Part shown: positions 30,597 to 39,500 of the stretch, piece after piece
Numbering within the stretch: the stretch's first letter is position 1
How the letters are laid out: each line of letters starts with the position of its first letter
Assembly: GCA_000934665.2 (NCBI GenBank)
Contig: KZ538422.1
Coordinates: 1-64,000, forward strand
DNA: 64,000 nucleotides
Source of the DNA: Catajapyx aquilonaris
Taxonomy: Eukaryota
Direction of reading: 5' to 3'
Notes under the pieces: generated by a model
Database searches by the model: none
What the model was told of the DNA's origin: nothing
Seen by the model: the letters and a program-made list of their open reading frames with translations, nothing else
Translations under genes and position numbers: made by a program

Positions 30597-33500
30597 GATG
30601 CCCCGTGATAGGCCCCTTGGGCCTCTTAGGGGATCATCTTTTCGTGAACCGTCTTTAATCATTGCCTGTAATGTGATGGATTTTTATTGCGGGAGGAAAC
30701 GGGAGAACCCCGAGAAAACCCCGCGAACACGGAGAGAACCCTTCGAAACTCTATCCACATAAGCATCCTTTTCGCGACCCGGGGATCGAACTCGGGACCT
30801 TAGAGGTGGAAGGCTGTGGCGCTAACCACTCCGCCACCGTGTCGCCCTGAATGCAGATACATCACATTTTAGTAATTCTATCAGCCCCAATTACAAGTTG
30901 AATTTTGGGAAATTTGCCAATTTCAGAACAGGAGCAATTGAGTAACCATTTCCTTGAATTATAAATAAATATACAGCTTTGAAAAATAAATACAGTGTAT
31001 GACTGTTCTAAGAAAGGTTGTGGGAAGCTACCATAAAATATATACATTGTTGGCCTTTATGAGCTGGCAAATGGCAGCAAGGGAAATAATGGTGTCCTCC
31101 AATCCATTAATACTTTTGATAGCCACTAAAGTAACTGCTTGAATTATACAGATTAGTGCCAACAACAGCCACAGCAATCAGAGAAGTATTTTAGATCACC
31201 CTGTATAGTCAGGTGTTACATAGTGCAACTTGGGACCCATACTTTCCAAGATGTAAAAAGAGAGAGACCTTTGAAAAAGTTATGAAACTCAATATAATGG
31301 GCTTAAATACCTGAATGATTGGGATATAATACGATTCCATCGTTGATACCAGCACTGCACCATTAAATGTGAGAATTGCCACATTGCATTGCTTGTAAAG
31401 TGAAGCAATGAGTGGAGAAAAAATTATACAGATTGTCCTACCTTTCTATACAGGAGTTTCTGAATTCAGCCGACAAGCTTCTAGGGGTAATAGAGGGGAC
31501 CAAGACAAACATCTATCTTCTATATCAATAAAGACAGATGTGAGTCTGTCTGTCTTTCTGTCTGTCTGTCCGCCCACCAATGCCATCTGTGGACCAATAC
31601 TCCAACACCTTCAACCTCTCCCGCCTGTATAACCCCAACCGTTATTTGCCTGCCATCTGTGGTCCATCTGCAACACCTCCAACCTCTCCCGGCCTTCCCA
31701 ATTTTCTATCAATAAAGACGGCTGTGATTCTGTCTGTCTGTCTGTCCGTCCGTCCGTCCGTCCGGCACACCAACCATCTCATTCGCCTGCCGTCTGTGGT
31801 CCGCTTCCTGCACCTCCAACCTCTTCATATAGGAACCCATGTTCGGAAACTCTTCTGAGAGACATGTTCCTTGTCTATTGACCCCCTCTAGATGGTGTGT
31901 CCAGACACATGTTCCTATATGAAATATGTTTGTTTTGGTCCCCTCTATTACCCCTAGAAGTTTGTCGGTTGGATTCAAAAACTCCCTGTATATAGGACGC
32001 CTTGTAACTTCTGTTGCAATTAAAAATTTACGCTGAACTATTTTTTTCTATCTTAGTTTCTGGGTAAATCCATATCAAGGCGATCACTCATGAAACCTTA
32101 CCTCCTCCGATTTTGACCAAATTTGGCAGAATTGTAGGTGTCATCGAGATATGGTATTGGACCAAATTACATGCCAATTTGTTCGACCTGTTCGGCGTGA
32201 GAGGTCACGGGAATTGTCGCTCTCGGTCAGCAAGCGCCGCAATTTTTCGGACATTTTCTTGAATAACTTTCTCTATGGGTCACATTTGGACAATGAGCAT
32301 ATGTATGGGTAGATCATAGTTAGATGCACCATGATATGTCACTTGTATGAAAATATTCCTTAATTTATGCACGTGCCATGGAGTTTCTTTCTGTGACCTT
32401 CGACCTCATTTTAAAGAAATTGATGCATCTTCGATTTTGAAAATTGATGTGCCATATGAAAGGGCAGATCATGGTCTAAGTGACTGCCAAAAATCAGGAT
32501 GGGCCCTCCAGAGGCCGCTGAGAAAATAAATAAAACGTGTACCACCAGCCGGTGACGCATATGTGTGAAGTAAACAGGCCACCTGAAACCAGTACCTTTG
32601 ATGGCGAATTGACTCACCTCTTGTGACGAGTATTGTTTTGGCTGCCTCTGTTGATGTATTGGCTCCCACATGAGTGGGTGTGTGTGTTGATTCTTGGGGT
32701 AGGTGTTCTGAGCTCAGTTGGAAAGTGTCAGTTCCAAGTGACAGGGTCCTTGTCCTTTGGTGTGTGGTCATTATTATTACTGTAAGTACCTGTATTGCAC
32801 ATTTTTGGTTTATTATGTCGGAAATTTTGCAAGCAGTACCTTATCACTATTTGGCAGGTTAGTCACTTGCAATGGCATGTTCGGTTGGTTATATCCTGAA
32901 TGAACCATGCCCAAGTGGTAGTCGTGATGTAGTGTTGCATTCCATCAGCAGAGAAGAGGAGGAGCTAGTTCAGTTAAGGATAGGCCATTCTGAAACAATT
33001 GAGAATGTGTGCGATGAACACCGTAACAGGTTACTGCGAGTCTACAGTGTTAAGCAGAAAAAGTGCTGTGATCCTCTTGCTATGCACTCAGATGAAATTA
33101 GGAGGAAAAACATCAGGCCGATCACACTGGACACTGTTCATAATTCCGCCTTAGAACTAATTCCTGGACAAAAACTCTGCACGCCTTGTCGCAAAGCAAT
33201 CTTACAGTATCATATATCCCATGATGATGACAACTGTGAGAATGATTCCGAACCTGAAGGCGCAGGTAACGAATCTGATGCACCGTACGAGCCAATTGAG
33301 GGTGCCTTATCAGAAGTTATTTCCAGCCTCAATGAATCTGTTGTTCCGCTGGTGGGGGAGTCTCCAATTGTGGCCAAAAAAATGACGCAGAAAAAGTACC
33401 CAGGGAAGAAACTGAAACAAATTCATGAAGGAGTCCGAAAACGCCTGAAGATGACGCCAGAAGGGGAAAATGAGCAGCAAATTCAGTTAAGAAGTAGTGC

Positions 33501-36500
33501 AGATTATGCTGAGGAAATGCTGTCACAGTTGAAGGACAAGTTTAACGTTGCTACAAACCGAAGTGAAAGAATGCAGATTTTAACAGTGTTGCCTCGCAGT
33601 TGGAGCATAAGAAAAATCATGGGCCAATTTAACACAACATATCACATGGCAAGGGGCTCCAAACGTCTTCAGCAAGAGAAGGGGGTGCTTTCATCCCCAA
33701 ATCCCAAACCTGGAAAATCACTGGATGACACCACAGTAAAAACCGTAAGAGAATTTTTTGAGAGCGATGATGTCAGTCGTTGTATGCCAGGGAAGAAGGA
33801 TTGTGTTACAGTAAGAATTTGTGGAAAAAAAGAAGTCGTTCAGAAGAGACTGCTCTTGTGCAATTTGAAAGAAGCCTACAGCTACTTCAAAGAGCAGAAT
33901 CCTACAGCCAAAATAGGATCTAGCAAGTTCGCTGAATTGCGTCCCAAAAATGTAGTGCTGGCAGGGGCAAGTGGTACACACAACGTATGCACTTGTCTGA
34001 CACATCAGAATGTGAAGCTGATGGTTGAAGGGATGCAACTGAAAACTACTCCAGAATTTGAGGATCTTCTTGACAATTACACCGGCAACATTTCCTACAA
34101 ACACCTCATAGCTGCAATAACATGCAATCCGCCTCAACCCACTTGCTTGCTAAATGAGTGCATGATGTGCAGCAGCAAAAAGGACTCGGAATCTTGTGAC
34201 TACTGTAGCGGGGAAGAACATGATGAAAGCGAAAGCCAATTATTCTGCCCCTGTTGTGACCGGATTCGGAGCCTGCGGAGTGCCATCAGTGATAGATTCG
34301 AGGAGCTCCAAAGTGATTACATAACGTATAGATCCTGGGTTTCTGCTGACCGGACAACTTTAGAAGTAATCACAAAAGGTACAGATGACTTCATGGAAAT
34401 TCTTATGGAGAGACTGGTGGCACTTCGCAGGCACGATTTCATAGCTAAACAACAAGCTTCTTTTCTGCGAAGCAAGAAGGAGAGCATCAGAGAAGGAGAA
34501 ATTGTGGTTTTATGTGATTTCTCTGAAAACTATTCCTTTGTGGTGCAAGATGCTGTGCAGGGTTATCATTGGACAAACGATCAGGCGACAATACACCCTT
34601 TTCTAACCTACTACTACTGCCCTGAAACCCCTGAAATCAAGACCATCAGCTACGTTATCATTTCTAATTCCATGACTCATGACACTATTGCAGTCCACCT
34701 TTTCATCAAGAAGTTGATTACATATTTAAAAACAAAAATCCCAGTCTCGCATATTTCATACTTTTCCGATGGAGCTGCTTCCCAATACAAAAATCGCAAA
34801 AATTTCCTCAACTTGGCCCACCACCATCATGATTTCGGAATTTTGGCAGATTGGCACTTTTTTGCTACCAGCCATGGAAAAGGACCCTGCGATGGACTGG
34901 GAGGCACTGTAAAAAGACTTGCAGCGAAGGCCAGCCTGCAACGACCCAATGAGAACCACATCACCACAGCAGAGCAGCTGTTTCAGTGGGCAGAAGGTGC
35001 CTTCAACAGTGTCGCCTTCCACTATGTGGCAAAAGAAGATGTTAAAATAGAAGAGGCACTGTTGCAGGAGAGAATGGACGCAGCCATACCGATCAGAGGC
35101 ACACAAAAGCTACATTCTTTTCAACCCGTGTCAGGCTCTTGCGATAAAGTGACTGTCCGTATGTACTCCACGGAAGAGAGAGGGAAGATTGTGAGAGTTG
35201 GTAGACTGAAAAGTGAATAGAGACACCACCCATCCGTGCAATCTTCACTTCCAGAACACGATAGACTGTACAAGTAAGTCTAAAATACTTCTACATCATA
35301 TCACGTATCATTTCATAATCCTAGGTGGTCTCACATTGCCAGATAGCCTGTTTACATCACACACACTACCCCAAGGATCAACACACAAGCCCACTCATGT
35401 GGGAGCCAATACATCAGCAGAGGCAGCCAAAACAATACTCGTCACAAGAGGTGAGTCAATTCTCCATCAAAGGTGCTGGTTTCAAGTGGCCTGTTTACTT
35501 CACACATATGCGTCACCGGCTGGTGGTACACGTTTTATTTATTTTCTCAGCGGCCTCTGGAGGGCCCATCCTGATTTTTGGCAGTCACTTAGACCATGAT
35601 CTGCCCTTTCATATGGCACATCAATTTTCAAAATCGAAGATGCATCAATTTCTTTAAAATGAGGTCAAAGGTCACAGAAAGAAACTCCATGGCAAATGGC
35701 ACGTGCATAAATGAAGGAATATTTTCATACAAGTGACATATCATGGTGCATCTAACTATGATCTACCCATACATATGCTCATTGTCCAAATGTGACCCAT
35801 AGAGAAAAAGTTATTCAAGAAAATGTCCGAAAAATTGCGGCGCGTGCTGACCGAGAGCGACAATTCCCGTGACCTCTCACGCCGAACAGGTCGAACAAAT
35901 TGGCATGTAATTTGGTCCAATACCATATCTCAATGAAACGTACAATCCTGCCAAATTTGGTCAAAATCGGAGGAGGTAAGGTAAGTTCCAAGACCAAAGT
36001 GATCGGATTCACGTGGACTTACCCTTCTGCCTTCTAACACATGACAAAATATTATTAAAATATCATAAGTAGATCAACCTTGGGAACAATGGGTTAATAA
36101 GCAACCCTGAAGTGAGTGTGAGATTTAGGAGATGGGAATCTACAGTTTCCTGAATTGATCTCAGTTCCTGTATGCTGTCATAGTGTGAGCAGGTTGTGGT
36201 CCTCAGTGTGATTCTAGGGTTTTCAGAAACTTAGTGTGGCTTTTAGACCTTCTGCAAAAGTTAGCAGTACCTATCAATAAATATGGAGTGGAATTTTCGT
36301 CCCACTGTTAGTTCCTGCTAACTTAGCAGTAACCATCCCCAACAATGGTACTGCTAAGCTAGCAGTAATTAGCAGTGGGACGAAAATTCCACCCATGGTT
36401 ATTCATGAGACAGTTTACAGGAGAATCTCGGCTTCCTGGAAGAAGTATGCTTCTAGCCGAGACTTAACAGAAGGACAAATAACTCGCCTCTGTATGAATA

Positions 36501-39500
36501 TACGTAGAACTACTCGTATATGTGCAAATTAGCCTTTTGTGAACTAATGTTTCTTTTATACATTTATTAATATTTCCAGTATTTTTTATTGTGATTTTAC
36601 TGTGGAAAATGTTTTAGAGTTTGCAGGACCAATGCCTCATGCGTCGTAGCCATGAAGTGATTCACCTTTTTTTGGAGGACTTTGGCAAGCCACACACAGA
36701 GATATTTAAGAGTTTTGATGAGAACCCTGTGGCTGCTGCAAGTTTAGCGCAGGTGTTTCGTGCTCGCACCCAGGATGACAAAGAGGTGGCTGTGAAGGTC
36801 CAATTTATTGACCTGAGAGATCGATTTGATGGTGATATTAAGACACTTGAACTTTTGATGGAAATTGTTACATGGATGCATCCTAAGTTTGCCCTGAAAT
36901 GGATTTTAAAGGTATAAATAATCAGTCAGTTCACAATACTTTGGGTTAGTAACTTGCATTGTTTTGCAGGATTTGAAAGATACTTTAGCTCAGGAGCTAG
37001 ATTTTGTACATGAGGGCAAGAATGCTGAACGTTGTGCCCAGGACTTGAAGATGTTTTCATTTGTGCATGTGCCAGCAATACATTGGGATAAGACAACACA
37101 GGTGCCTCATTGCACATGCCATTCATGATGACATTACCTGCCACATTTTTTTTTACAGAGGGTGCTGACAATGGACTTCATAGATGGGATGAAGATCAGT
37201 GACAAAGTAAAGCTGAAAGGGAATGGATTTTCACTGAAGGATATAGATACAAAGCTGATCACTATCTCCTCAGAGCAAATTTTCCGCACTGGCTTTGTCC
37301 ATGCAGACCCACATCCTGGGAACAGTAGGATGCATTCCTTGCTCTTCTACAGTATACAGTAAAATCTCGATATAATGCTCGTGCATATACCGCTTTCCTG
37401 CTTTTAACGCCCTTTTTCCAGTCCCTTGGTCAGCCCCATAAGGCCCAATGGTAAATTTTCCCGCTTATAGCACTTTCCCGCATATACAGCTTGGTTTCCC
37501 TGGTCCGCAAGAGAATTGAAAAGTTTTATATTTGGAAAACAGCACTTATGTTAAAGCCAATTCTGCTTAGGTGACGGGCATGGGGAATGCCCGTCACCTA
37601 AGCAGAATTGGCTTTAACATAAGTGCTCCCCCTAAGTTATCAATTTTATGCCATGTAAATTTCACCTATCCCGCTTTTAACGGCCCTTTTTTCTGGCCCC
37701 TGGACCATCCCCATAAGGCCCAATGGTAAATTCTCCCACTTATAGCGCTTCCCGCTTGTAACGCTTGGTTTCCCTGGTCCCCAGACACACTTGTCCCACA
37801 TATAACTTCAATTTTCATCACTCTCCTCTGTCCTCCCCATAATTGTGATAATGGGGAGGAAAGTGACGGAAATTTTAACAATTCTAATTTGGCTACAAAC
37901 ATTATATTTAACATTTGAAGGTGTCGGTGCAATACTGCCCTAACCCTCCCAAACCTGATTTTGAGAAAACTGAAGTTGAAAGTTTGAGATGACCCATAAA
38001 TTACCTTTTCCATAGGACAATTTTCATATCTCCCCCAATATACAAGGCATTAATAAGGGATACTTATGTGCTATTATGATGATGATGATGCACCACCGAC
38101 TCTAAGAATGAACAAAATAAGGTGGCCACGTGTGAAAAAAAGGGTTAGGGCAGTATTGCACCCAACTTGTAATGCGAACTAAATTTTGGTCAAGAACGTA
38201 TCACAAGCTTCACTAGTTAGTTTAGTGATCATATAAATTATATCAAATGAACTGTCGTGAGATGAGGAACATTTTGGTGGCATCGGGTATAACCTAGATT
38301 GTAAAATAAAAATGCTAAAAAATTCGCATTATTGTTCAAAACGGACACATTTCATATGGTCCAATGTCATTGCTAAACACATGCTAAGCGTACCATACAC
38401 TTCTAATTTATACTGTAAGCTTAAGCTAGAGAAATGAAAAACCCCTGGATGGGGGTGGTCCTAAACTTTCGGGAAAGACTGCGTGGTACGTGGGCAGGTC
38501 AGTTCAGGTTAACGTGGTTTATGGGCTTCATTCTACAGTGAAGGCATTTATTTCCTGAGAAAAGGGTGAATTAAATAGTATTTCCCGCATATAACACTAC
38601 TTTGGGTCGGTCCCTTGAAGAGCCTTATATTGAGGTTTTACTGTATATCTGGTTTTGATAACTCATATTTTTTCTGTTCTTTTTCCTTGGCACAGTCCTA
38701 ATTCGTAAAGGCCCAGACAACAAAGCACAGCTGGTGCTGCTTGACCATGGGCTGTATGAAGAACTGCCAGACAAGACACGCAAGTCGCTCTGCATGCTGT
38801 GGAAGTCAATTGTCCTCAAGGATCATCCAAACATGCAGAAATGTTCTTTGGAACTGGGGGTTAAAGGTATGTTAAGGTTTGTGTAGGACATCAAGTGAAA
38901 AGCGGAAAAGACCTGACCAAGCGAAGGTGATGGGAGACAGGATTTTATCCCTGGACCTCCCGCTTGGTTGGCCAGCAGCATATCCACTAGCCCACCACGA
39001 CCCTTATGATAAAAGACACTATGATCAGTGCATTTTTCCAAACGTGACATTATTTTCAAAATACCCACCTCATAAAAATGGGCCTTCTGATACTGTAACC
39101 CAAATTCGCATGCAAATGCAACTTCCTCGTCAATGTTGAACTTTCTTTCCCACAGGGTCAGTTTGAGAAAGGTGACAATTTATTGCTAGGTCTAAAGTCA
39201 CGTGTATCTCATGCATATTAGCTAGTATCTGACCACTTGACCATAGGTAGCTAATGACTGCTCTCTATTCCTCTGTGGTGGACATTTACAGCATGGGGTG
39301 TAGTGGTGAATTCCACCCTAACCCACACATACCTGATTTTCAGAAAACTGCAGTTGAAAGTGCTAGAGGCCATAGTAGCCTACATCCCATATTCCATGTG
39401 ACTTTTTTCATTTGATTTCTCAGTGACTGATGGCAGAAACTGCACAATCTCAATGTATTTTATTAGATACATGAGGGTAGTACATTTTAATTGATATTTA

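Follow-up and report, generated by a model that had tools for sequence, protein, structure and literature searches.

The P-element transposase carries at its N-terminus the THAP domain, a C2CH zinc module of which many domesticated host copies are found in chromatin regulators. A comparable case may be present in the stretch of DNA analysed here, hereafter called the window, which consists of 64,000 nucleotides of Catajapyx aquilonaris (GenBank assembly GCA_000934665.2, contig KZ538422.1, positions 1 to 64,000 of the forward strand) and contains a Sola2-type DNA transposon (Table 1), the transposase of which begins with a Cys- and His-rich domain of 113 amino acids. Since THAP sits at the N-terminus of a DNA transposase and has been reused by hosts as a zinc module, it is the best analogy for the capture proposed below.

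Sola2 transposons generate target-site duplications of 4 bp, and the terminal inverted repeats (TIRs) of their amoebozoan families are 12-21 bp long, compared with about 612 bp in the window element. The published Sola2 alignment begins downstream of the N-terminal domain treated here and hence does not describe it (PMC3627910). The second protein of interest, ARL14EP (C11orf46), binds SETDB1 through a C-terminal Cys-rich domain (CRD) at amino acids 209-237 (PMC6739341), and its orthologues ARLE-14 of the worm and CG14464 of the fly interact with SETDB1 homologues (PMC13108219, PMC8850192). The first-pass annotation of the window had likewise placed SETDB1 binding in the C-terminal Cys-rich domain, and this is in print (PMC6739341; review PMC13108219). 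For the N-terminal half of ARL14EP no function is assigned in the literature examined, SETDB1 binding being C-terminal and binding of histone H3 or chromatin not being assigned to a region.

The N-terminal domain of the window protein is proposed to be a targeting domain of Sola2 transposases, and a domain of the same family would make up the N-terminal half of ARL14EP. To this explanation as a whole we assign a probability of about 0.7. Kinship of the domain with ARL14EP is likely on the indirect evidence described below, and its domestication by a host gene is a plausible lead.

The transposase and its N-terminal domain

The transposase frame, 785 codons from stop to stop, is one of only two stop-free frames of at least 150 amino acids in the 64 kb and is for that reason not regarded as a chance open reading frame (ORF). 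Its predicted product of 782 amino acids is collinear over its full length with an 820-amino-acid protein of Hydra vulgaris (P0153, whose cluster has 49 member sequences), with 35 % identity over 773 columns (E 3e-148). The catalytic blocks of the window protein agree with those of Sola2-2_HM, Sola2-5_HM and Sola2-x_SP as aligned in supplementary file 2 of PMC3627910, and the motifs DFxENY..QDxxQxxHW, SDGxxxQ[YF]KN and SHGKxxCDGxGGxxKR are shared with the Sola2 transposases of Hydra (Sola2-2_HM and Sola2-5_HM) and of sea urchin (Sola2-1 to Sola2-3_SP). No Pfam family was found in the 782 amino acids at E ≤ 1. The catalytic blocks and the collinear Hydra protein bear out the identification as a Sola2 transposase made in the first-pass annotation, and the window protein is classified as a Sola2-type transposase with a predicted catalytic body of the DDE type.

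The 113 residues which had been quoted for the start of this ORF are identical to its translation and include every motif that had been listed. A phmmer search with these 113 amino acids against 1.84 billion representative sequences matched 365 proteins at E ≤ 1e-3, of which 23 reached E ≤ 1e-10; the strongest match had E 1.6e-23 and 45 % identity. The window domain was aligned with 49 short relatives (50 sequences); all share C47 and C65, and conservation is at least 90 % at C3, G6, C13, R36, H50, P68, H72, G99, C103 and C106. Eight conserved Cys and His positions are enough for two zinc sites, the candidate ligands being C3, C13, C47 and H50 in the first half (module A) and C64 or C65, H72, C103 and C106 in the second (module B). 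The AlphaFold2 (AF2) model obtained with the 50-sequence alignment as input had a pLDDT of 92.5 and a pTM of 0.81. The second half, with the pattern C[CA]DP..H...PGxKxCxxC, is doubled in tandem in six relatives (P0009, P0019, P0032, P0063, P0114 and P0125), and this doubling of module B alone suggests that the second half is separable and that the domain consists of two sub-modules, A and B. Judged from its conservation, amino acids 1-113 are a compact conserved module of about 110 residues with two sub-modules, each predicted to be able to hold one zinc. The domain is absent from the family libraries consulted here and would become the first described N-terminal domain of Sola2 transposases.

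Relatives of the domain

The named sources of the domain family are mosquito, Hydra, spider, crinoid, frog and phylloxera, and the ESM Atlas adds unnamed clusters from echinoderms, cnidarians and molluscs (0.90-0.91). The view of the N-terminus as a discrete Cys/His module of Sola2 transposases, put forward in the first-pass annotation, agrees well with this conservation across many animal phyla, in which the domain is the usual start of Sola2 transposases. Among 44 relatives inspected, every one that extends past the domain runs into the Sola2 linker, with the motifs SPxK and LTxLPxSWS, or into the catalytic body, and the block DF[AS]EN[YF] is present in all ten relatives of at least 650 amino acids. 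No Pfam family, PF14949 included, was found in the best 150 of the 365 relatives (E ≤ 0.001).

A degenerate DNA pattern encoding CCDPFxxHKK was used to search metagenomes, followed by the A1 domain profile. The scan gave 42 loci, of which 30 had the domain with a score of at least 25 bits, six had a weak or truncated domain and six had none. In four of them (L038, L022, L041 and L012) the domain is followed by a full transposase. All architectures observed in 173 relatives and in the 30 metagenome loci with a solid match were those of transposons. No fusion with a host protein was found in 174 proteins; 13 tails of at least 60 amino acids which lay off the transposase-body profile were judged by eye to be pieces of linker or junk in a shifted frame. 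None of these 13 unmatched tails was a C-terminal Cys-rich tail resembling the CRD. In the displayed portion of the amoebozoan Sola2 N-termini (supplementary file 9 of PMC3627910) no CSxG...CCDP domain is present, so that the domain is apparently a feature of the animal Sola2 branch.

One of the metagenome loci, L012 (1312-1626 and 1787-4087, + strand), has an intron of about 200 bp which splits the domain after ...HKKPAHGK, the remainder of the domain and a transposase body of 766 amino acids being encoded in another frame. The first exon of this locus recurs in L017, and the protein P0056 ends at the equivalent point. Many copies of a single domain family, WKKCCDPFAKHKK, all of them decayed, were found in the contig groups Ga0210059, JGI24159J19872 and JGI24021J15306 (L004, L005, L007, L009, L010, L014, L015, L018, L019, L021, L024, L027, L028, L031-L033, L036, L037 and L039), which are presumably animal host DNA within the metagenomes.

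Matches to the CCDPFxxHKK pattern in prokaryote genomes (26 loci) were rejected as bacterial chance matches; with the A1 profile six of these loci gave hits to the motif only, which scored below 20 bits. A conserved stretch of Collinsella genomes, ICCDPFYWHKKRGRGR, accounts for L003, L008, L023, L029, L030, L035 and most of L043-L068; it was likewise set aside as a chance match, the A1 profile giving nothing on the six metagenome loci.

Proposed similarity to ARL14EP

Three of the 27 proteins matched by a second profile (A2) are named 'ARL14 effector protein-like' by NCBI or UniRef, namely P0061 of the spider Uloborus diversus (167 amino acids), P0122 of the crinoid Antedon mediterranea (128 amino acids) and P0168 of the phylloxera Daktulosphaira vitifoliae (118 amino acids). 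These proteins comprise little beyond the domain, and PF14949 (ARF7EP_C), the only Pfam domain of ARL14EP, was not found in any of the three even at E ≤ 10, so that the similarity underlying the name must lie in the N-terminal part of ARL14EP. Names of the '-like' type are presumably given by NCBI from the best Swiss-Prot match. P0061, which matches the window domain with E 4e-18, shares 61 % identity with the beginning of P0157, and P0168 shares 81 % with the N-terminus of P0160, a transposase fragment. Both P0157 and P0160 run on into Sola2 linker motifs, and the three proteins are regarded as transposon pieces.

The first-pass annotation had given a motif string for human ARL14EP which we presume to be correct; its order of motifs fits the consensus of the domain family, and the string as a whole is closer to this consensus than to the window protein. 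Four variants in this string are absent from the window protein and are present in relatives (of the 173, LRTG is found in 16, ICFHH in 4, CCDPF in 53 and KLCPxC in 16), which argues that the string was not invented by copying the window. Homology between the domain and the N-terminal half of ARL14EP, as it is known through the database names of relatives and through the presumed human motifs rather than through direct alignment, is considered very probable.

Several observations weigh against this kinship. A '-like' database name is an automatic label, and the best 150 of the 365 domain relatives, as stated above, include no carrier of PF14949. Searches of a set of 5.8 billion proteins with the A1 and A2 profiles, confined to candidates sharing exact five-residue words, returned no vertebrate ARL14EP; the A1 search covered proteins of 355-2000 amino acids, a range which excludes the 260-amino-acid ARL14EP, and gave four matches of the transposase type, and the A2 search covered proteins of 51-496 amino acids. 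The search of named clusters in the ESM Atlas gave no usable match. A single-sequence word search among longer proteins also gave no match, and ARL14EP was not present among the PDB sequences or among the loci from metagenomes and prokaryote genomes. The window protein itself differs from an ARL14EP orthologue in being a transposase and in having no PF14949, the SETDB1-binding domain, at E ≤ 1.

Fold and possible function of the domain

The domain is proposed to be the targeting part of the transposase, most likely binding DNA at the transposon ends. Zinc domains found at the N-terminus of other transposases suggest, by analogy, a role as an end-recognition (DNA-binding) module. It may act together with a segment resembling a helix-turn-helix (HTH) about 120 residues downstream. 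A second AF2 model, of amino acids 115-345, had a pLDDT of 87 overall and was confident from about amino acid 145, with values below 50 in its first 21 residues. In this model three short helices form a unit around the LTxLPxSWS block. Foldseek rows for the helical segment were weak (E 0.5-2) and included many winged-helix regulators, and no Pfam match was found for it. The three-helix unit and the winged-helix type of these weak rows raise the possibility that the transposase has a separate HTH, the helical segment being a possible, modelled helix-turn-helix in a suggestive sense only. Binding of chromatin by the N-terminal domain, or pairing of two transposase molecules through it, would be less likely.

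For the domain itself no PDB fold match at E ≤ 0.001 was obtained with Foldseek (best E 2.5). The THAP profile of Pfam did not match the 113 amino acids at E ≤ 10, and a THAP structure appeared just at a Foldseek E of 7.7; the window domain is set apart from THAP by its first two Cys, which lie nine residues apart. In an exhaustive structural alignment with 48,161 representative chains no row for the domain attained a Z of 5, and the five best rows were all ZAD structures of Drosophila, with Z of 4.2, 3.6, 3.4, 3.2 and 2.9. The best row was Grauzone (1pzw; rmsd 3.6 Å over 56 aligned residues) and the fifth Pita (7pok), the others being M1BP (7po9), CG2712 (6fp5) and Serendipity-delta (7poh); model residues 1-63 were aligned, and 1-84 with Pita. 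A profile search of the PDB sequences gave a single ZAD entry, Serendipity-delta, with a weak E of 0.026. These ZAD dimerisation domains are the sole structural neighbours of the domain and, at a Z which is at noise level, count against DNA binding.

They also speak for the main alternative account of function, in which the domain does not bind DNA and is either a ZAD-like dimerisation module or a binder of chromatin or histone tails, the downstream helices reading the transposon ends. The presence of a well-folded helical segment after the domain is in line with this account, as is the binding of histone H3 by ARL14EP, which is retained when the C-terminal Cys-rich domain is deleted (PMC6739341) and implies that another region of ARL14EP contacts chromatin. 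However, a Z near 4 falls short of the best score that unmatched models typically reach in that structural search, and the ZAD sequence match covers module B whereas the ZAD structural matches cover module A. ZAD resembles the domain in being held by zinc and in having a CxxC followed by a helix at its end, but its site is formed by four Cys, whereas the first site of the window domain is of the type C-C-C-H (C3, C13, C47 and H50) and is accompanied by a second zinc module. The zf-AD family of Pfam was found neither in the 782 amino acids (E ≤ 1) nor in the 113 amino acids (E ≤ 10). The likeness to ZAD is read as hinting weakly at a treble-clef-like zinc module and not as a sign of family membership. 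A complex prediction with two copies of the domain and zinc scored 0.00 and gave no verdict, controls not having been run. A function other than DNA binding is on balance rather doubtful, and recognition of the transposon ends is retained as the proposed role of the domain.

Direction of the proposed capture

In the proposed course of events a Sola2 N-terminal exon would have been captured next to an older SETDB1-binding Cys-rich domain, giving rise to the vertebrate ARL14EP/C11orf46. If the homology is accepted, capture from transposon to host is probable, the simplest reading being that an older gene with only the CRD gained the module; ARLE-14 and CG14464 presumably share just the C-terminal domain with ARL14EP. 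When homology is not taken for granted, capture in this direction has somewhat better than an even chance, and the full proposition, in which the targeting domain of a Sola2 transposase was domesticated as the N-terminal half of vertebrate ARL14EP and joined to an older SETDB1-binding Cys-rich domain, stands at about even odds.

It is unlikely that the homology is real and the direction reversed, an ancestor of the animal Sola2 elements having captured a host ARL14EP-like N-terminal domain. The domain is not universal in Sola2, being absent from the displayed portion of the amoebozoan N-termini, so that animal elements could have gained it within their own lineage; but the 173 relatives and 30 solid metagenome loci all look like transposon copies or fragments, with neither a host-gene architecture nor a C-terminal Cys-rich domain among them. 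That the resemblance to ARL14EP is merely convergent or compositional, with short motifs shared by chance and the name an artefact of a weak hit, is distinctly improbable. Cys-rich motifs do produce spurious similarity, and the word, phmmer (best 150 relatives), A1/A2 and named-cluster Atlas searches did not return ARL14EP, but three proteins of barely more than the domain, from spider, crinoid and phylloxera, were named ARL14EP-like independently, and the presumed human string would have seven motifs in the same order with variants typical of the family and absent from the window protein.

Transfer of the Sola2 domain to ARL14EP, the preferred direction, would have several consequences. The N-terminal half of ARL14EP would gain a testable function, the targeting of DNA or chromatin with two zinc sites, and several hundred natural homologues would be open to structure-function work. 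Sola would join the transposon superfamilies which have contributed to vertebrate genes, with the first Sola-derived part of a host gene recognised in humans. A cofactor of the main H3K9 methyltransferase that silences transposons would then read DNA or chromatin with a module derived from a transposon.

No link between ARL14EP/C11orf46 and a transposase is proposed in the accessible parts of the literature searched. Outside this search lie papers under subscription and the gene tables that supplement screens for transposase capture, in which ARL14EP may already be listed. The word 'transposase' in the accessible text of ARL14EP papers refers to ATAC-seq or piggyBac, and no proposal of Sola2 domestication involving ARL14EP was found in the same literature. 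A full-text search for a 10-residue motif of the domain returned nothing, and one for 'ARL14 effector protein-like' returned just unrelated work. In the table of a Repbase review (PMC5753468), as judged from its plain-text spacing, Sola is without the mark given to superfamilies with human traces. Since an automatic pipeline already labels relatives as ARL14EP-like, the similarity is easy to find and may already be known to curators.

The element and its surroundings

The features of the element are collected in Table 1. By blastn the two TIR arms have 96.1 % identity over 622 columns, and repeat finding splits their pairing into three abutting pairs of 97-99 %. The terminal inverted repeats expected of the Sola2 group are thus present.

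Table 1 Features of the Sola2-type transposon in the 64,000-nucleotide window of Catajapyx aquilonaris
Feature	Position	Strand	Remarks
Whole Sola2-type DNA transposon	32095..35982	+	About 3.9 kb, bounded by inverted repeat
Left terminal inverted repeat, about 612 bp	32095..32706		blastn against 35982-35361
Intact transposase ORF	32872..35220	+	782 aa + stop, no intron needed
N-terminal two-zinc domain (predicted), aa 1-113	32872..33210	+	Start of the 782-aa ORF
Acidic low-confidence linker, then helices, aa 114-229	33211..33558	+	14 D/E in aa 114-170
Helical segment with conserved LTxLPxSWS block (aa 237-245)	33559..33906	+	AF2 pLDDT 90-98; possible helix-turn-helix
Catalytic core blocks	34513..34917	+	34513-34572, 34759-34794 and 34858-34917, corresponding to aa 548-567, 630-641 and 663-682
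Right terminal inverted repeat	35361..35982		Pairs with left TIR

The expected 4-bp target-site duplication was not found at the outer ends, where the flanks are TGAA and AAGT and no shift of the boundaries helps, and this speaks against the assignment. The word GATCACT is common to both TIR flanks (32080-32095 and 35982-36010), at differing distances of 6 and 15 nt, and its presence on both sides suggests that the original ends may lie further out and have been eroded, which could explain the missing duplication. A search for short motifs repeated in the TIR, as candidate binding sites, gave just four two-copy families of 11-15 nt, which are unconvincing. No second copy of the element was found in the 64-kb window when the TIR and the internal part were each searched and when tblastn was run with the domain and with Hydra P0153. 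The element has the sequence of an ordinary, very well preserved Sola2 transposon and is regarded as such. A lookup of sequencing runs listed four DNA data sets, all of one study, and no RNA data set.

The element is flanked by an inverted repeat at 31453-31522 / 31916-31985 (70 nt, 87 %, arms 393 nt apart) and by a hairpin at 36288-36331 / 36349-36392 (44 nt, 91 %, 17-nt loop). The inverted repeats at 31453-31985 and 36288-36392 may be small non-autonomous elements. Further downstream are two exons with similarity to ABC1 atypical kinases (PF03109), one at 36639-36914 (+; E 2e-25, profile positions 12-98) and one at 37171-37359 (+; E 2e-13, profile positions 147-198). As these exons lie directly downstream of the transposon and on the same strand, the transposon would be located shortly before a host gene of the ADCK type or inside one of its introns.

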